DNA of 64,000 nucleotides from positions 1-64,000 of IMG/VR virus record IMGVR_UViG_3300009503_000022, one strand, 5' to 3'. Each line of letters begins with the position of its first letter. Positions within the stretch are counted from its first letter, which is position 1. Below are positions 5,927-20,176 of this stretch, piece by piece. The stretch is from a virus. The translations under genes and the position numbers were made by a program. The notes below the pieces were generated by a model. That model had not been told where the DNA came from. It did not search any database and was given only the letters and a program-made list of their open reading frames with translations.

Positions 5927-6670
5927 CTAATTTCCTTTTTTCATTATAAATATATTATCTCCCGGAAATTTCCACAACCCATTTTTAAGCATTCTATAAT
6001 ACTGCAAATTACTTTCATTTTTATGTCCTTCTTTTGTTTCTCCATAATCCTTAGTTATTATACCTTTACATTTATAACCATATTTTCTTATAATTTCCAT
6101 ACAATGAAAACCTAAAGGTATATGTTCATTTTTATAATAAATATGACCACAAACTAATATTAAAAATCTTTCATTATCTAAATAATTAGTAACATTTGCT
6201 ACAACTTTCTCAAACTCTATTAAAAATTCTTGCAATTCTGAAATATTACTTAAATCTTCCTTTTTATCTGTAAATTTTATTATATTAAAATACGGCGGGT
6301 GCATAAAAACTAATTGAACATTTTGTTTTGGATCAAAACTTCTTGAATCGGCTATAATAATATCATTTCTTTTTGAATAAATATCGTTAGCAATCACTTT
6401 TCTATTTAATTTTTTACAAACATCAATAGTTGTTCCACTTCCTGCAAAACAATCCCAAACAGTTTCGCCCTTTTTTGTATACCTTAACACCATCTGGTAT
6501 ACTATTTCAGGAATAAAAATTCCATGAAATTCTTTGCTTTTTATATCATTAAATATATCTCTTTTAGGTATTTTCCACTTATCAGAACTATTAGATATCC
6601 ATATAGCATCTGTAGTTATATCATTCTTGTATTTTCTCCAATTTTTCAAATCTAAATCATTATATATCAT
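5927..6670 (-). CDS. amino (N6A/N4C) DNA methyltransferase
   Basis: DCFAGSGTT SAM motif followed by HPPY catalytic motif. Confidence 0.8.
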   Translation of the reverse strand: MIYNDLDLKNWRKYKNDITTDAIWISNSSDKWKIPKRDIFNDIKSKEFHGIFIPEIVYQMVLRYTKKGETVWDCFAGSGTTIDVCKKLNRKVIANDIYSKRNDIIIADSRSFDPKQNVQLVFMHPPYFNIIKFTDKKEDLSNISELQEFLIEFEKVVANVTNYLDNERFLILVCGHIYYKNEHIPLGFHCMEIIRKYGYKCKGIITKDYGETKEGHKNESNLQYYRMLKNGLWKFPGDNIFIMKKGN

Positions 6671-6692
6671 TTTAAAATATCCTTTAATAACT

Positions 6693-6983
6693 CTATTTAT
6701 TTTTTCTTCCCATATATAAATGTTTATTCTTTTTATAAAAATTCTCCCTCTCTATTTCCGCCTTAGCTTGAGCGATAGAACTATTTATAGAATTAATACT
6801 CTTACTTGGCGGAAAACAATAATAAATTTCTCTTCTTGACAATCCTTTCTCTAAAAGCATTTTTATTATATCCTTATCTTTTTGTTTTTTCTTTGTTAAC
6901 TCCAATTCCTTTAAATATTTTTCTATCAATTTTGTATTTACTTTAACATTCATTTTAACCCTCCTTTTTTTAAATTCTTTCAT
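6693..6983 (-). CDS. small HTH-like protein, paralog of 5677..5925 (likely start MNVK at 6953)
   Basis: High similarity to 5677..5925; AAGGAGG before the internal Met. Confidence 0.7.
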   Translation of the reverse strand: MKEFKKRRVKMNVKVNTKLIEKYLKELELTKKKQKDKDIIKMLLEKGLSRREIYYCFPPSKSINSINSSIAQAKAEIERENFYKKNKHLYMGRKNK

Positions 6984-7248
6984 TACCTATTTTTATTTTT
7001 TCATTACTTTTTTATTACTATAATTTCTTAGCAATAATATCATTTTTATGCTTAATCTTTACTTCATCTATTTTATTTCATATAACTTTAATAAAATATC
7101 AAATTCTTTCCCTTTAATTTTACATAAAAAAAACTAATAAAATTAATATAATTATAAATAATACCAATATCTTAACAATTTGAATAAATCTTTCAGCTTC
7201 TAAATCTTGCTTCCTTTTTCTCTTTCTTTTTACCTTTTTAAATTCCAT

Positions 7249-11612: not shown

Positions 11613-14399
11613 TTATAAACTACTACCATTAATAAAAATCTCATCAGGATTATAACCAGAAATTATCTTTTCAATCATTTCTCTGTCTTTTTTCAAGTTA
11701 ATACCCTTCGTACATCGCCAAATAACAACAACTTTTTTATCTTCTTTTTCACCAAAAACAAATACATATTTTCTTCCATCCTCTATAAGAAACTTATACT
11801 TATTTATAGTTAATCCCAAAAGATAATTAAATGTTTCGATTAAATCTATATTAACAATTTCTTCTCCTTTGTTACCTGAAATAATTTTCATTTTATATTC
11901 AAAAGGATTTTCAAAATCCTGAATGTTTAATAATGATTGACAACATTCGATTTTATGCCTTAAAAAATATTTCATTAGATATTCATTTCCAAATAGTTCA
12001 AATGCACTCTGCCCTTTGTCTTTGTTTACAAATTCAATATTGTGTAATGTATCTTCATATTGTTCAAGATAATGATATTTTAAAAAAACTCCAATTCCAT
12101 CTATATCCTGTGGTTTCCCCTCTTTCCAATTAAAAGAATAAGCAATTTTTTTCATTCTTGGAATAATAATAGTATCAAAATAATCTGCCATCTCTACAAG
12201 AATAAATTTTCTTTTACCTCCATCTTCTTTATTGAGTTTCATAACTGCGTGTGCGGTTGTGCCTGAACCCGCGAAGAAGTCAAGGATAAAAATTTTATCT
12301 TCTTCAATCATACTGATCAGAAATTTTATAAAGTGTATCGGTTTAATTGATTGTAGAGATATAAGTTCCATATCCCTTATTATTTTGCTTTCATTATTCA
12401 TATCCTTCTCAAAATCGTAGAAATCAAAATAAGAAATTTCTGTTTGGGCACTATTTAATTCCTTTCTTATCTTTAAAGGAATTCCTTGATAATAGACAGT
12501 ATTTATTGTTCTCTCATCAGGATTTTTTATATATCTGAAACCAAAACCATCATCACCTATGCCATAAACTTTATATAAATAGTTATAATTTTTTTCTTTT
12601 TCGAATAATGGTCTTAAGTTTTCTTCGTAAAATTTTTCAGTAAATTGAGCAGTTTTTATTTTCCCTCTTATTGATATAGGTTTAACAATATAAAAATCAT
12701 TTATCTCACTACATTCAATTATCTCATATTGGTCGGGTCTGAAACATTCTATTTTATATTTACCAATTGTAAAAGTTTTGAAGGGTTTATCTTTTTCTAT
12801 AATTTTTAACTTATATTCTGAAAAATCGTAATCAACTTTTTTCTTTTTTATAGACATTTTTTCTGATTTTGAAAATACCAAACAATACTCTATTGATTTT
12901 TGAAAAATAGATTTCTGTGTTAGTTGTCTAGCTGGGTTTCTCATTTTTATTTTTAATTTTTCAACTTCAAAATAAAAACTTCTCATTATATTATAAAGAT
13001 TACTGACTTCATTATCATCAATACTTACAAAAATAACTCCATCGTCTCTCATCAATCTCTTTGCCAAACTCAATCTATTTTCCATCATAGTAAGCCAAGA
13101 AGAATGCTGGTATTTATCCTTATAGAGAAATTCATCATTTCCTGTATTATAAGGTGGATCAATGTAAATAGTCTGCACTTTATCTTTATACTTATTCAAA
13201 ATCAAATTTAATGCCTGATAGTTTTCGCTTTTAATCAAAACTCCATCTAATAATTCATCAATATTTCCTTTCTCTGATAATTTTTCTAATAATCTTTCTT
13301 TAAAATCCTGACTGAAATATTTTGTATCTATAGGTAGTTTTCTGCCTTTTATATCATTTTTATCTTTTATTTTGCCAAACCCTAACTCCTCCCATTCCTT
13401 TAATTGCTGATTATTCTTAAAAATCTCATCATAAAACTCTAAAGGTATCCTATCCATTGTAATTACATATTCGGTTTTTAAAACAAATTTCTTCTTCTCC
13501 CATAGTAGTTTCTGAAATTCTTCAATTTGAGCAAGAAATTTTATAATTCTCTTTGCAATTTCATCAACAACCTTTGCTCTAATAATATGTTTTGATTCTA
13601 AATTATTAAGGTCAACAATCTCTGTTTTTATATAATAATCGAGTTCTCTTTCTAAAAATCCTTTCAAGTCCTTATGAATAAAGAAATCACTAATTTCAAT
13701 ATGCATATATTTACAAAGATGTTTTTCTAAAATTGTTTTATTATCTTTTATTTTCGAAAAAATTTCTTTAAGTTCAATTTCGCTAATTTGTTCAACAATT
13801 TTATCTTTTATAATATTATTAAGCATTTTTTGCTTTATATCTGCTGTTATTTTATAATTCTTAATATCTTCATCAGACAAATATCTATACTCAAAATATA
13901 TAATACAACTTTTTTGTTCTTTATTAACCTTGATAAAATCATTTTCCTTTAAGAAAAAATATTTTCTCTTATTATTGATATTTCTCACTTCTATAAAAAC
14001 AGTTTTAAATATAATCCTCCATCCTTCCAAATCAAAACTATAATCTTTAAAAATCTCATTAGTATTTACATAATACTGATCAGAATTTATCCAATAAAGT
14101 TTTACATCTTCACCACTATGAGGAATAATACACTTTCTTGAAATAAAATTACCATTTTCATAATATCTTAAAAAAAATCTATAAAGATCATCAAAAATTT
14201 GATTTTGCATAAATTCATCAATCTGATATTTATACTTCTCAAATTCACCTTCTATTACCTGAACAAGTTCACCTTTAACAAAATCTTCTATCTTCTTTCT
14301 TTTATAATTCATAATTCGATAAATACCAAAATCAAATTCACTAATATCAAATTGACACAAAATTCTAAATAATTTTTCTAATCTTTCTATCATACCCAT
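11613..14399 (-). CDS. mod: type III restriction-modification Mod-like adenine DNA methyltransferase (no res gene in the window)
   Basis: DFGIYRIMN N-terminus, IYIDPPYNTG, ILDFFAGSGTTAHAV, EQYEDTL, DLIETFNYLLG. Confidence 0.9.
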   Translation of the reverse strand: MGMIERLEKLFRILCQFDISEFDFGIYRIMNYKRKKIEDFVKGELVQVIEGEFEKYKYQIDEFMQNQIFDDLYRFFLRYYENGNFISRKCIIPHSGEDVKLYWINSDQYYVNTNEIFKDYSFDLEGWRIIFKTVFIEVRNINNKRKYFFLKENDFIKVNKEQKSCIIYFEYRYLSDEDIKNYKITADIKQKMLNNIIKDKIVEQISEIELKEIFSKIKDNKTILEKHLCKYMHIEISDFFIHKDLKGFLERELDYYIKTEIVDLNNLESKHIIRAKVVDEIAKRIIKFLAQIEEFQKLLWEKKKFVLKTEYVITMDRIPLEFYDEIFKNNQQLKEWEELGFGKIKDKNDIKGRKLPIDTKYFSQDFKERLLEKLSEKGNIDELLDGVLIKSENYQALNLILNKYKDKVQTIYIDPPYNTGNDEFLYKDKYQHSSWLTMMENRLSLAKRLMRDDGVIFVSIDDNEVSNLYNIMRSFYFEVEKLKIKMRNPARQLTQKSIFQKSIEYCLVFSKSEKMSIKKKKVDYDFSEYKLKIIEKDKPFKTFTIGKYKIECFRPDQYEIIECSEINDFYIVKPISIRGKIKTAQFTEKFYEENLRPLFEKEKNYNYLYKVYGIGDDGFGFRYIKNPDERTINTVYYQGIPLKIRKELNSAQTEISYFDFYDFEKDMNNESKIIRDMELISLQSIKPIHFIKFLISMIEEDKIFILDFFAGSGTTAHAVMKLNKEDGGKRKFILVEMADYFDTIIIPRMKKIAYSFNWKEGKPQDIDGIGVFLKYHYLEQYEDTLHNIEFVNKDKGQSAFELFGNEYLMKYFLRHKIECCQSLLNIQDFENPFEYKMKIISGNKGEEIVNIDLIETFNYLLGLTINKYKFLIEDGRKYVFVFGEKEDKKVVVIWRCTKGINLKKDREMIEKIISGYNPDEIFINGSSL

Positions 14400-14960: not shown

Positions 14961-14995
14961 TAATTATATCTATATTTTTATAATAAATTTACATC
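14961..14995 (-). promoter_or_regulatory. class B promoter-like motif GATGTWAA-N19-TATAATTA
   Basis: Identical spacing at 27050-27084 and 43316-43350. Confidence 0.6.
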
Positions 14996-17067
14996 ATATC
15001 TGTTATAATTTCGCCTGCTTGATATTCAATATTACTTTCTATAAATTCTCCTCCCTCTTTACTTTCTTTAAGTTCCTCTACAAATAACTGCTTAATTGCT
15101 CCAACAACAGTATCTGTCAAATCTTTTTCTCCTTCTTCTGTATGATCTACCTTACCATCTTCCTTTCTTTCTAATTGCTTAATTTCTGTTAACAACTCTT
15201 CTATATCTAATAATTCAATTCTTTGAGAATAAATAAATTCCATAAAATTATTATAATCTTTAACTGTTAACGTATATGCATCGGCTTTTATACCATCGTT
15301 CCTCAAATCTTGAATAAAAAGACTAGACTGCCAATGATCAAAAAATACTATAATATTTATTCTATTGGATATCTCTTTAATAATTTGTCTAATATTAGGA
15401 AACGATACTATATATCTTACTTTAGTTACTTTATCAATAGGTCTCCAAACAGTAGAACAATCGTGTATTGCTCTTGCACCTTCTCTATGAAAAATAGACA
15501 TTCCACATTTATCGTGCTTTTCCCCCAAATCTATAGTTAAAATATATGTAAAATCTTCTAATCCAATATTCCATTTCTTAATTTTTTTCTTAATCTCACC
15601 ATTTTCCATATAATCTTCAAATTCAACTATAGGTTTTCTAAATTCATTAACACAAGCATATAACTTATCTGGATATTCTATAAATGGTGATTGAGATCCA
15701 GGAGGCATACACATATACATTGACTTTGCCATTGTAGGATTACGATCAAAGGTTGATTTAAAATCTATAGGTATCTTATAAATTTTTTTAACATCATTAT
15801 TATTCTTATCCTTCACTATAACTTCAAAATCAAATGTAGGTCTATCTTTATATAATTCTTCTTTTACTTCCCAAGTAAACGCAGTATCTGCATATATATG
15901 CAAATCCGACTCTGCTAATTTAATTAATCGTTTAATAAATCCTGACTCTGTTCTTGGATAACTAATAACAAAACCTTTATATTTATTTCCAAATCTAGAT
16001 TCTGCAGACGTTTGAAGCATATTAAATATTTTATCTGCATTTCTCGTTTTAGTTTTATCTTTAAATGCATCTGCTTCATCCATAGTAAACATTAATAAAT
16101 TTAAACCTTCTGTACTCTCTTGTTCAGAATGCCTACTAAATAATCTTATTAAATTTGGAAATAATATAGCGTTTGTTCCAATTCTTATTTCATTTCTTAA
16201 TTCGACAATATCCTTTTCACTAATATATGAATTACTTATCTTAATATTAAAATACTGCTTAAACCATAAATTATTTATTACTCTTTGTTTTAATTTTTCA
16301 AAAAATACAAATTTTGCCTGTTCTCCTGAATATGCAACATTAACAATATCTATAGCTTCATTATCGGGTAATCCTAATAACTTCTGAGGATTATTACAAC
16401 ATAATAAAAAATAACAACAATATAAAGTCATAAGTGCACAAATTGTATCCTTACCTGAATTATGATGTAAAATATCATTTAAAATCATATTCTTATGTAT
16501 TGGAGAACAAAATCCATAAAATTCTTCTTCTCCAATCTCTTCTATACTTTCTATTTCATCAAATTCTAATATTTCATTTATTTTATATATATCATAATTA
16601 TATACGTGAAATTCTATATTCATCTTTTTTGCAAATTCTTTTGCAGCATTACATTTTATCTCGAATATAGGACTATTTTTAGTAAAATTACTTTTAATCT
16701 CTTCTATCCAAATTGAAGCATTTTCATTATCTATAACTAATAAATCTGGAATATAATTATGTTTAATTCCATCAATATAATACGGTATTTTCATAGGTTC
16801 GTGAAAAAATATATATCCATTATTATCTAATTCAATCATTCTTACTAATTCATAATTAGAATTATATTGTTGTATACCATTATTTTTAAATTTATATTTT
16901 CCACATTTTGCCTTACTCCTATTAAAAGTTTTATTTATAATTTTATTAGATATAGTTTCAGAATTATGTTCTTTATTCTTTTTAAATCTACATTTATCGC
17001 AATATTTTCTTCCATATACACTAATAAATAATGAATTACAATTTTTACATATCATTTCTTTTGGCAT
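14989..17067 (-). CDS. terL: terminase large subunit, C-terminal part: Zn finger + TnsA-like endonuclease + C-intein + ATPase remainder + RNase H-like nuclease
   Basis: YIPDLLV..EEIK (PD-D/ExK); ILHHN|SGKD splice junction; FTMDEAD Walker B; IDLGEKHD, FDHWQS, KVDH...KDLTD nuclease motifs. Confidence 0.85.
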   Translation of the reverse strand: MPKEMICKNCNSLFISVYGRKYCDKCRFKKNKEHNSETISNKIINKTFNRSKAKCGKYKFKNNGIQQYNSNYELVRMIELDNNGYIFFHEPMKIPYYIDGIKHNYIPDLLVIDNENASIWIEEIKSNFTKNSPIFEIKCNAAKEFAKKMNIEFHVYNYDIYKINEILEFDEIESIEEIGEEEFYGFCSPIHKNMILNDILHHNSGKDTICALMTLYCCYFLLCCNNPQKLLGLPDNEAIDIVNVAYSGEQAKFVFFEKLKQRVINNLWFKQYFNIKISNSYISEKDIVELRNEIRIGTNAILFPNLIRLFSRHSEQESTEGLNLLMFTMDEADAFKDKTKTRNADKIFNMLQTSAESRFGNKYKGFVISYPRTESGFIKRLIKLAESDLHIYADTAFTWEVKEELYKDRPTFDFEVIVKDKNNNDVKKIYKIPIDFKSTFDRNPTMAKSMYMCMPPGSQSPFIEYPDKLYACVNEFRKPIVEFEDYMENGEIKKKIKKWNIGLEDFTYILTIDLGEKHDKCGMSIFHREGARAIHDCSTVWRPIDKVTKVRYIVSFPNIRQIIKEISNRINIIVFFDHWQSSLFIQDLRNDGIKADAYTLTVKDYNNFMEFIYSQRIELLDIEELLTEIKQLERKEDGKVDHTEEGEKDLTDTVVGAIKQLFVEELKESKEGGEFIESNIEYQAGEIITDMM
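16459..17067 (-). mobile_element. C-terminal half of a split intein fused to a TnsA-type endonuclease
   Basis: FDEIESIEEIGEEEFYGF...NDILHHN followed by Ser+1. Confidence 0.8.
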
Positions 17068-17353
17068 ACGCGATACTATCTCCTATTTTCAATTCCTTTA
17101 TTTTTTTCCAACCATTTTTAGTATACAATTTATGATTCTCATCAACTTCTATTATTTTACCTAATTTTGTTTTTATTCTGTATATTTTTGCTTTACCTTC
17201 TTTAAATATAGGTTTAATCGTAGTAATAACCTTTTTTCTTTTATGAAAATCAATAGCTTCTACATTTATTGGTTTTTTCAAACTTTCCCACTCTTCTACT
17301 GTATGTCTTTCTTTAGTAATTTTATCTTCTATAATAGTACCTTTCCGAAAACC
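17045..17353 (-). mobile_element. N-terminal half of a split intein (starts with Gly)
   Basis: Hint block A/B-like motifs, ending at GDxIA. Confidence 0.75.
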
Positions 17354-17650
17354 TCCTTTCCCCCATTCTAAGACTGCCAAATTGAAAATTGGATTATCAA
17401 ATATATTCTTATTAATATTATTTTTGTTCTTTACATAATCATCATAAGTATATCCATATAACATTGCATAACAAGCATCTAATTGCCTTTTCGTTAATTT
17501 TATAAAATTACAAAATTCTTTATCTTCAACAAAATTTTTAAATTCAATAGGTTCAAATCCTTCTTTAAATATAGATACTTTTTTTATACCATCTATTTCA
17601 TTTTTTTTATCTTTTATTATCTTATTTAAATCACTGTAAAAATCCTGCAT
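17045..17650 (-). CDS. terL: terminase large subunit, N-terminal part + N-intein
   Basis: LTKRQ adenine-binding motif, AVLEWGKG (first half of Walker A), then Hint N-part GFRKGT...YRIKTKLGKIIEVDENHKLYTKNGWKKIKELKIGDSIA. Confidence 0.85.
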   Translation of the reverse strand: MQDFYSDLNKIIKDKKNEIDGIKKVSIFKEGFEPIEFKNFVEDKEFCNFIKLTKRQLDACYAMLYGYTYDDYVKNKNNINKNIFDNPIFNLAVLEWGKGGFRKGTIIEDKITKERHTVEEWESLKKPINVEAIDFHKRKKVITTIKPIFKEGKAKIYRIKTKLGKIIEVDENHKLYTKNGWKKIKELKIGDSIAYAKRNDM

Positions 17651-18221: not shown

Positions 18222-18528
18222 TTTTATTCTCCTTTAAAATTTTACGAATTTTATTTAAACATCTTTTTAAACACATATTTACTCCAGCTTGAGTTATTTT
18301 TAAAATATTTGCTATGTGAGATTGTTTCAAATTATATTTATAATACATTAAAAATATCATTTTTTGCCTTTTTGTAAAATGTTTTTTTATTATCTTATTT
18401 ATTAATTCTATATTCTTTTCTATAAATTCGCTTCGCTCGCTATTCTCTTCCTCATTAATATAATCAATAAAAGACTTATAACTAGCTAACCTATTTAATA
18501 TATTATGATCAACATATATTATTTTCAT
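18214..18528 (-). CDS. sigma-70 region 4-like HTH protein
   Basis: FTKRQKMIFLMYY..LKQSHIANILKITQAGV...LNKIRK. Confidence 0.8.
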   Translation of the reverse strand: MKIIYVDHNILNRLASYKSFIDYINEEENSERSEFIEKNIELINKIIKKHFTKRQKMIFLMYYKYNLKQSHIANILKITQAGVNMCLKRCLNKIRKILKENKNE

Positions 18529-19031
18529 AAAAAATTAATATCTTCAATCCTAAAATTAGCTTGTATCATACGACCAAATAATTTTAATGCTAATTTGACT
18601 TTATTATCACATACTTCTAAAACTTTTCCTTCTCTTCCAATAAAAGGACCATCTAAAACAACAGCTTTATCACTCTTAATATTATTTCTCAACCTATTAA
18701 GTATATTTATAGATTCTTCGATATGTTTCAAAATCATTTCTTCAGATATTGTATAAGGAACAACTACTTCAACTTCCTTATTGTTAATAATTGTTTTACA
18801 ACTATGAACTAATAAATAAATATTAGAAAAACTATTTTTTATTCTATTAAATATTTCCATATTTCTTAAAAATATATAATTTGGATATAATAATATTTCT
18901 TTTTCTACTTTTTTATTTCTTAAAATTTTAAAATCTTTATAGATAGGTATTAATACATCTGTAGAATTAACGATATATTTTATTTTTGTATAATCAATAT
19001 TACATATATAACATATTATCCATTTATTCAT
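18525..19031 (-). CDS. NusG/RfaH/LoaP-family transcription antitermination factor
   Basis: NGN motif LLYPNYIF; KOW motif VVLDGPFIGREGKV...LFGR. Confidence 0.85.
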   Translation of the reverse strand: MNKWIICYICNIDYTKIKYIVNSTDVLIPIYKDFKILRNKKVEKEILLYPNYIFLRNMEIFNRIKNSFSNIYLLVHSCKTIINNKEVEVVVPYTISEEMILKHIEESINILNRLRNNIKSDKAVVLDGPFIGREGKVLEVCDNKVKLALKLFGRMIQANFRIEDINFL

Positions 19032-19053
19032 AATTACCTACCTAATTTTAAAT

Positions 19054-19095
19054 AAAAAAAGATTATAAGGTAAATCTTAAACTATCTTATAATCT
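19054..19095 (-). terminator. putative intrinsic terminator just upstream of the NusG paralog
   Basis: Minus strand AGATTATAAG-N16-CTTATAATCT followed by a T run. Confidence 0.55.
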
Positions 19096-19169
19096 CTTCT
19101 GATTTTTTCGGCCAGAAATTATTTATAATTTCAATAAAAATAAATTACAGTTTTCCTGTCAATTTATTT

Positions 19170-19364
19170 TTATTCATCATGAAAATCCTCAGAGCGAACA
19201 GTTTTCCTTTTTCTTAATCTAGCTTTATTACACGCATTTTTTATAATTTGTTTAAACAAATCATTTATTATACCATAACAATCCTTAGACATCATCATTC
19301 CTTCTTCTCTAATTAACTTATGTATATAAAATGGTCTAAATAGATATGTATGAAATTTTTTCAT
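19170..19364 (-). CDS. prokaryotic-type histone-fold protein
   Basis: 64 aa three-helix pattern ending ARLRKRKTVRSEDF (RKTV...D histone signature). Confidence 0.75.
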   Translation of the reverse strand: MKKFHTYLFRPFYIHKLIREEGMMMSKDCYGIINDLFKQIIKNACNKARLRKRKTVRSEDFHDE

Positions 19365-19495
19365 TTATTTTCTTTTTTAACTATTCTTATTATTCTTCCA
19401 CATTTATTACATTTATAAGTCTTTTCGTCAATCTTTTCCATTTCAGCATCTTTATTACATTTACAGCATATTTTTTTAACATTAAATTTATTCAT
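19361..19495 (-). CDS. 44-aa zinc-ribbon protein (missed by the track)
   Basis: MNKFNVKKICCKCNKDAEM...YKCNKCGRII; ATGA overlap with the histone gene. Confidence 0.55.
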   Translation of the reverse strand: MNKFNVKKICCKCNKDAEMEKIDEKTYKCNKCGRIIRIVKKENK

Positions 19496-19788
19496 AAACT
19501 CCTCATTAAATTTATCTTTTTTTCTAATTTATCTAATTCTATTTCTATTGTATCAATAGCCACATCGAACATTTCTAAATCTTCTAAAAAAACTTCTTTT
19601 TCACTATCAGGTAATTTTTTAATTATTTCTTCGTATAACGATTTTCTTGCTTTTAATTTCAATAAATTATATTCTCTATCTCGTTTATATTCGATAAGAA
19701 AATTAATTTCATCGGATAATACTTTATTAAAATCTATACCTAAATATTCTTTTATCTTATCAGTCCAATATTTTATAATTTTATTCAT
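19492..19788 (-). CDS. hypothetical coiled-coil protein
   Basis: ORF. Confidence 0.55.
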   Translation of the reverse strand: MNKIIKYWTDKIKEYLGIDFNKVLSDEINFLIEYKRDREYNLLKLKARKSLYEEIIKKLPDSEKEVFLEDLEMFDVAIDTIEIELDKLEKKINLMRSL

Positions 19789-19789
19789 C

Positions 19790-20176
19790 TTAAAATTCCC
19801 AAATAAATTTTTTATTATTTTCGACTATTGCAGAATCAAATATATTTTCTATCCATTTATCTATTCCGTGTTTTATTATCGCAGGTTTTTCATATAATAA
19901 ATTTATATCATAAATTCCATAAAATATATGTCTATTAATATAAAGTTTAATATCAAACTCAATCCTTTTTTCGTATTTACTTCTTTCTAATTTATTACTC
20001 AAAATTTTATAAGCTTCTACTATTTCTTTAAACTTTTCTTCTGCGGTATCGCTTTTATTGATATCAGGATGATATTTTTTAGCTAATTCTAAATAAGCTT
20101 TTCTAATCTCAGATATCGAAGCATTTTTTTTTACTTTTAATATTTTATAATAATTTTCTTTCATATTAATTATCAA
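19790..20176 (-). CDS. J-domain (DnaJ-like) protein
   Basis: NYYKILKV...[12 protein letters not shown]...[12 protein letters not shown]. Confidence 0.9.

Follow-up and report, generated by a model that had tools for sequence, protein, structure and literature searches.

The ORF at 19170..19364 on the minus strand is a real phage gene encoding a miniature α3-truncated histone, a member of the family of HBb (Bd0055), HLp and HTkC. It belongs to a linear IMG/VR record of 110,355 bp (IMGVR_UViG_3300009503_000022; CheckV completeness 76%), the first 64 kb of which constitute the window, i.e., the whole stretch of 64,000 nucleotides that was analyzed; the genome has a GC content of 26% and carries all its long ORFs on the minus strand. 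We estimate at roughly 60% the probability that the protein would act, like HBb, as a homodimer that bends intracellular phage DNA irrespective of its sequence. We infer a bacterial host only from the sigma-70 region 4, NusG, RuvC and DnaJ homologues in the genome; tRNA genes, close homologues in cells and prophage kin were looked for as host clues and not found. Genes for tRNA or tmRNA were absent from the whole 110,355-bp record, despite its low GC content and its size.

Coding evidence and family membership

The coding sequence occupies positions 19173-19364 and is followed by a TAA stop codon (19170-19172). It translates into a protein of 64 aa which, in line with the first-pass annotation, is basic (pI 9.7), with a net charge of about +7 located mostly around loop L2 (RLRKRKTVR). 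Codon usage is coding-like in the histone frame, where the ORF scores +0.19 bits/codon; the two remaining sense frames score -1.76 and -1.95, and the antisense frames range from -0.8 to -1.1. The long genes of the same genome, taken as reference, average +0.42 ± 0.12 in their own frame and -1.69 out of frame. The ATG of the histone gene overlaps, as ATGA, the TGA stop codon of the 44-aa ORF located upstream, which suggests translational coupling between the two, and the identical protein sequence is recorded on three contigs. A further ORF of 183 aa (19346-19897, plus strand), rich in Phe, Ile and Ser, lies antisense to the histone gene and its upstream neighbors, and is interpreted as a shadow ORF cast by the AT-rich coding strand rather than as a gene.

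Direct searches with the protein gave individually weak results, yet all of them pointed to a histone. The Pfam model PF00125 (Histone) matched with an E-value of 0.0017 and 19.0 bits, below its curated cut-off of 26.4, and the NCBIfam archaeal histone model NF043032 with an E-value of 0.0017 and 18.7 bits, below its cut-off of 50, while PF00808 (CBFD_NFYB_HMF) was not among the matches in the Pfam search. In the PDB, phmmer retrieved H2B (E 3.5e-4), HLp (0.065) and HBb (0.39). Only one relative emerged from an exhaustive phmmer search of 1.84 billion representatives (P0002; E 2.2e-4, 29% identity), a natural protein of 124 aa in which two mini-histone folds form a doublet, and copies of which are annotated from Poseidoniales archaea; either half could be aligned to the phage protein without gaps (46 and 54 residues). 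Starting from P0002, 244 single-fold relatives were gathered from Elusimicrobiota, Bdellovibrionia and archaea, labeled as histone H3/H4 or DUF1931, and 120 of these bacterial and archaeal mini-histones were used to build a family HMM from which the phage protein was excluded. Among the 432 stop-to-stop ORFs of the window this profile assigned 24.1 bits (E 6.5e-7) to the histone protein and 5.0 bits to the next ORF, the best of 5000 shuffled versions of the protein reached 7.6 bits, and in the whole 110-kb genome the histone ORF was the sole match (E 1.4e-6). The comparison of the protein with the family by hhalign gave a probability of 93.1% (E 3.1e-7) over 45 gapless columns, and the reference family in turn matches solved histones (HLp at 1.7e-19, HBb at about 1e-13 and HTkC at 1.9e-9). 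The phage protein is homologous to the α3 histone family.

Within this family it is, on the evidence of its sequence, an unusually divergent member and nearly an orphan. A word-indexed search retrieved the protein itself only, pattern scans of IMG/VR gave no relatives, and tblastn against 50,697 phage records returned only noise; since no orthologue was found in other phages, conservation is unable to vouch for its function. Its closest database relatives are doublets of the P0002 type: natural doublets of two α3 folds, 119-130 aa in length (P0002, P0123-P0241), are common, and some of them are annotated as Poseidoniales or Thalassarchaeaceae. Doublets likewise make up most of the 138 longer family relatives. 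Scanning IMG/VR with the family profile revealed mini-histones in two further viral records, L002 and L003. The relative in L002 scored 18.8 bits with PF00808, below the cut-off of 21.4, and on this single example curated models may under-call mini-histones.

Predicted fold and interaction surfaces

When supplied with an alignment of 121 sequences, itself made of histones, AlphaFold2 (AF2) modeled the monomer with a pLDDT of 89 and a pTM of 0.69, placing helices at residues 11-20, 29-50 and 58-61. The predicted layout is helix 1-L1-helix 2-L2-one-turn helix 3, and the protein ends at residue 64, three residues past helix 3; loop L2 (residues 51-57) carries R53-K54-T55-V56 and D60 falls inside helix 3. 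The minimal histone pattern that had been read from the sequence in the first place, i.e., a helix 1 with IHKLIRE, a long helix 2, the RKTV loop (53-56) and the Asp of helix 3, is thus found in the model at the expected places. The single-sequence AF2 model was instead a mediocre two-helix structure (pLDDT 69) without the L2 break, and Foldseek found no significant match for it, though its best rows were all H2B. With the alignment-based model, Foldseek placed HLp first (TM 0.83/0.95, rmsd 0.9 Å) and HBb second, and the VIA search of 48,161 PDB representatives, which does not depend on Foldseek, had HLp (Z 8.3), HBb (8.0) and HTkC (7.7) at the top, nearly all lower rows being histone folds as well, many of them non-nucleosomal.

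Because the AF2 alignment was itself composed of histones, the ESM Atlas was consulted for support independent of it. Its own language-model structure of the exact sequence showed TM values of 0.79-0.84 to clusters of bacterial proteins of 58-74 aa, one of the four listed structure clusters being named histone-like, and its feature search returned clusters with PF00808, one of them mostly Uroviricota. Phage proteins of the same fold are also present in BFVD, one of them 64 aa long and from an uncultured Caudovirales phage. Structure prediction had been put forward as one of the checks on the proposed histone fold, and the hhalign probability, the AF2 confidence, the leading fold matches and the ESM Atlas all agree with it.

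In α3-truncated histones helix 3 consists of 3-4 residues and helix 2 is shortened by 4-5 residues (Schwab et al., 2024; PMC11390915). Helix 3 of the AF2 model spans residues 58-61, and residues 13-61 (49 aa) cover 54 residues of archaeal histone A (PDB 9qv5, 9qv6), as expected of a short helix 2. Alignment of the phage protein required a four-residue gap with respect to H2B.1, none to HLp and one to HBb. The assignment of the protein to the α3-truncated histone-fold proteins is therefore supported, within the limits of a predicted structure.

Single residues were mapped onto HLp and HBb by alignment, and their roles were taken from the studies of these two proteins (PMC12701072; PMC11317129). 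The RxTxxxxD motif is kept (R53-K54-T55-V56-R57-S58-E59-D60), and all 121 aligned sequences have R53, K54, T55, V56 and D60; the Arg-Asp clamp R53-D60 and the KT motif K54/T55 are thus both retained. HLp K54 and R59, by which the DNA is held in simulations (PMC12701072), have K52 and R57 as their counterparts, and R19 is the equivalent of HBb K16. The residues by which the loops of two monomers pair are also kept (M24 and S26 in L1, V56 in L2), and together with the hydrophobic residues I33, F37, I40, C45 and F61 they conserve the HLp dimer contacts in kind. The protein, modeled here as a monomer, would presumably form a handshake dimer, and the family HMM detected no second histone gene that could provide a heterodimer partner anywhere in the 110-kb genome.

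The start of helix 1 is different. HBb T8-S9-K10, three of the ten main DNA-contact residues of that protein, are replaced by P11-F12-Y13, in a position where S-K is nearly invariant in the family, and of the helix-1 lysines of HBb, K12 corresponds to H15, K13 to K16 and K16 to R19. Moreover, HBb N22 falls in a one-residue deletion and HBb R57 is replaced by E59. Given the P11-F12-Y13 swap and the missing counterparts of N22 and R57, one of the two DNA-binding surfaces may be altered or lost. Overall, both the loop (β-bridge) DNA site and the dimer interface appear to be preserved, and the helix-1 DNA site appears to be altered.

The signature of the face-to-face (FtF) tetramer, R49/N53/R55 in HLp numbering, reads K47/R51/R53 in the phage protein, and HLp S52 and T61 are replaced by L50 and E59. 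The Arg and the Asn of this signature are invariant in the 120-member reference family. With the Asn replaced and the hydrogen-bond network mostly gone, wrapping of DNA by a face-to-face tetramer is not expected.

Relation to known histones and phage histone-fold proteins

HBb (Bd0055) of Bdellovibrio bacteriovorus is a "bacterial dimer" α3 histone (PDB 8fvx, 8cmp, 9ezz, 9f0e; PMC11317129) whose chains of 64-66 aa bear out the comparison in size made by the first-pass annotation; the phage protein has 64 aa and helices of equal lengths. The two superpose with a Z of 8.0 and an rmsd of 1.4 Å over 57 residues and are about 26% identical, their first helices read IHKLIREEGMM in the phage and VKKLIKEKGQM in HBb, HBb S24 and K16 have equivalents in S26 and R19, and the Arg-Asp clamp and the KT motif are common to both. 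The HBb dimer bends DNA through contacts with the backbone in the minor groove (PMC11317129), and by analogy a DNA-bending dimer would be expected of the phage protein as well. The conserved helix-1 DNA contacts of HBb (T8, S9, K10 and the lysines) are nonetheless not reproduced, and HBb is a cellular protein, abundant, essential and chromosomal, a role that cannot be extended to the phage-encoded one.

The best structural match was HLp of Leptospira perolatii, a tetrameric α3 histone of the FtF type (PDB 9qt0-9qt2; PMC12701072), with a Z of 8.3, an rmsd of 0.8 Å over 56 residues and a gapless alignment over 47 residues. HLp M26 and S28 have M24 and S26 as counterparts in L1, and HLp K54, R55, V58, R59 and F63 are all conserved in the phage protein, from which the tetramer signature of HLp is however absent.

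Histones with an α3 fold, the Bd0055-like class included, have already been catalogued computationally in Caudoviricetes (PMC11390915; PMC13681535). Liu et al. mined IMG/VR and described histone-fold proteins of Caudoviricetes that include Bd0055-like dimers (BBVHFP) and fusions to a KOW domain (VKHFP) (Liu et al., 2025; PMC13681535). The BBVHFP, which are phage-encoded and stand-alone, with a Bd0055-like fold and a predicted dimeric state, are the published class that fits best in a comparison made by description only; they end in a helix (PMC13681535), while in the phage protein three residues follow the one-turn helix at the C-terminus. That class was collected at an HMM E-value below 1e-5 (PMC13681535), a threshold that the phage histone, at 24 bits, would probably miss database-wide, as estimated from its score. 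Divergent phage histones are thus likely to escape both the standard family models and the thresholds of surveys, and published counts should be read as lower bounds. The "phage histones" in the sense of Schwab et al. (2024; example A0A2E7QIQ9; PMC11390915) carry a C-terminal helical tetramerisation domain and are devoid of the RxTxxxxD motif; the present protein shares with them the α3 fold and the origin from a tailed phage, but it has no extra domain and keeps the motif. It also differs from the DUF1931 pseudodimers, two fused folds without the DNA-binding signature residues (PMC12701072), in being a single fold with RKT and the Arg-Asp clamp.

The phage histone adds an example and leaves the overall picture unchanged. 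None of the papers cited here tests what a histone-fold protein from a tailed phage does biologically. The protein described is minimal (64 residues) and encoded in single copy at a defined regulatory position, with the loop site intact and the helix-1 site naturally altered, and these traits make it a convenient subject to learn what phages use histones for and which DNA surface is needed.

Gene context and candidate function

The histone gene is the last of a co-directional string of replication and recombination genes. Immediately upstream, with its TGA overlapping the histone ATG, lies the 44-aa ORF (19361..19495, minus strand), a CxxC...CxxC zinc-ribbon candidate with weak zinc-ribbon family matches only, preceded in the same tight string by a 98-aa ORF (19492..19788, minus strand) that overlaps it by 4 bp and has no family match in Pfam or NCBIfam. 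Next comes the gene of a 128-aa J-domain (DnaJ) protein (19790..20176, minus strand; Pfam DnaJ E 1.8e-22), which ends 426 bp upstream of the histone start and is the only one of its kind in the 110-kb record. Genes for RuvC, SbcCD-like and RecA/UvsX-like proteins are located farther upstream.

Downstream of the histone gene a spacer of 138 nt contains two hairpins, the second of them followed by a U-run. The first (19133..19174, minus strand), as given by RNA folding, spans the histone stop codon, and the second (19053..19100, minus strand) is terminator-like, with a perfect AT-rich stem of 10 bp in which 19087-19096 pair with 19060-19069; it stands about 20 nt before the ribosome-binding site of the NusG-like gene. 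The minus-strand RNA of 19025-19175 folds with -36.2 kcal/mol (z -6.1), and none of 200 shuffled sequences was as stable. A consensus terminator scanner reported nothing at the spacer; it demands at least three G-C pairs, and it missed the second hairpin because of the AT-rich stem, which folding revealed.

The first gene past this hairpin encodes a 168-aa NusG paralog (NGN plus KOW; 18525..19031, minus strand) and heads the packaging block. It was recognized by the Pfam KOW model and by a PHROG annotated as transcription antiterminator, its matches to the NCBIfam models of NusG, LoaP, UpxY and RfaH were all below the cut-offs, TIGR00922 detects it too, and the Pfam NGN model left this NusG-like gene of the window undetected. 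Next in order are a protein that has region 4 of sigma-70 only, an ORF of 196 aa that occupies the position of the small terminase but has no family match, and the large terminase. The place of the histone gene ahead of a terminator/NusG/terminase block, noticed in the first reading of the sequence, was therefore confirmed.

The two additional IMG/VR records offer a partial comparison. L003 (IMGVR_UViG_3300023444_000001) is a complete 81.9-kb phage with direct terminal repeats, and its 63-aa histone (5992-6183, plus strand), HBb/HLp-like and with an ANGRKTVR motif, is encoded between PolA, a gp32-like SSB and RecA, so that the two phages are alike in having a mini-histone inside the replication module. 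In L002 the histone abuts a J-domain gene (6224-7147, plus strand), one of two in that record, which starts 53 bp after it. A J-domain gene hence adjoins the mini-histone in two of the three viral records, an adjacency noticed post hoc, and the L003 record has no J-domain gene. In eukaryotes DNAJC9 is a J-domain histone chaperone that acts by recruiting a DnaK-type partner. The J-domain proteins encoded beside phage histones may similarly recruit the host DnaK as a histone chaperone, or the adjacency could mean nothing. No kin of the phage was found in IMG/VR with the NusG-like and RecA proteins as anchors, and its terminase is at most 28% identical to those of cultured phages.

In the reading that we favor, a homodimer would hold the backbone of DNA of any sequence, in the minor groove, through its two L1/L2 β-bridge sites, and the bound DNA would be bent or compacted, as by HBb. 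The last place in the replication and recombination string suggests that the protein is probably made alongside the products of those genes, during phage DNA replication, and the location of the L003 histone among replication genes supports this reading. The protein would represent a phage-supplied nucleoid-associated protein on intracellular phage DNA, and may organize or stabilize the 26% GC genome or help recombination, late transcription or packaging. A precedent for this kind of protein is TF1 of the large lytic Bacillus phage SPO1, a small, basic, dimeric DNA-bending protein of the HU type. TF1 prefers hydroxymethyluracil DNA and has the HU/IHF fold, not that of histones; the two would therefore be functional analogues with unrelated folds. 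Terminases thread naked DNA, which makes a packing role on the DNA inside the capsid unlikely. Of the three roles initially proposed for the protein, i.e., coating of the AT-rich genome against nucleases, a transcriptional switch and interference with the nucleoid of a histone-bearing host, the transcriptional one alone gains a little support from the gene context.

A weapon directed at the host, silencing or condensing its chromosome or poisoning its α3 histones through heterodimers, is a rather unlikely alternative. It would draw on the same DNA-binding features as the favored reading; a histone-bearing host is possible, given that α3 histones occur in many bacterial phyla, and the P11-F12-Y13 surface would suit a dominant-negative partner that dimerizes and binds DNA poorly. 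The gene is however located at the end of the replication and recombination string, not among the first genes after a genome end, and the sole relative in the 1.84 billion representatives is a remote archaeal doublet; the lack of a close cellular histone leaves both a recent capture from the host and a co-evolution with a host histone unsupported.

Only the terminator-like hairpins lie between the histone gene and the NGN-KOW gene that follows it, and Caudoviricetes possess the VKHFP, proteins that combine a histone fold and a KOW domain in one fusion (Liu et al., 2025; PMC13681535). These observations are compatible with a cofactor of a transcription switch, in which the histone would mark or bend the DNA at the hairpin and U-tract ending the transcript of the replication genes, and together with the adjacent NGN-KOW protein would time read-through into the packaging genes. 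Such a function is nonetheless unlikely, as the adjacency was observed in this genome only, TIGR00922 detected no NusG-like gene in the L002 and L003 records, and there was no KOW fusion among the 138 longer relatives of the histone family. The terminator-like element between the two genes also means that the histone and the NusG paralog are not co-translated. That the pair constitutes a two-gene counterpart of the KOW-histone fusions, and with it a histone-based middle-to-late switch in the phage, is a conjecture that we hold quite improbable.

Histone folds are widely used as dimerization modules, as the many non-nucleosomal matches in the VIA search illustrate, and the loss of the helix-1 DNA-contact motif could be taken to indicate that the phage protein is solely a protein-protein adaptor that does not bind DNA, as proposed for DUF1931 pseudodimers and as in TAFs. 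We regard this as very unlikely, since DUF1931 proteins lack the DNA-binding signature residues (PMC12701072) that the phage histone keeps, namely RKT and the Arg-Asp clamp besides K52 and R57, with its positive net charge concentrated at L2. Hardly credible, finally, is a chance ORF with a histone-like translation and no function: the ORF is short, without orthologues and above the threshold of no curated family, but its profile score exceeds by far those of shuffled sequences and of every other ORF, its similarity to the doublet halves is gapless over 46-54 residues, coding-like codon usage appears in the histone frame only, it fits, with an ATGA overlap, into a run of genes that share a strand and leave no gaps, and the same protein recurs on three contigs.

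Two minor observations concern the genes further downstream on the minus strand. The large terminase is encoded by two overlapping ORFs (14989-17650, minus strand) and is interrupted by a split intein: the first ORF ends in an intein splicing domain, and the second starts with a zinc finger and a TnsA-like endonuclease, followed by the remaining terminase part. The KOW part of the NusG model also matched a segment at 14202-14306 on the minus strand (E 0.0017, 14.2 bits), near the N-terminus of a 928-aa DNA methyltransferase ORF (11613-14399), where a KOW/SH3-like module may be fused to the methyltransferase.
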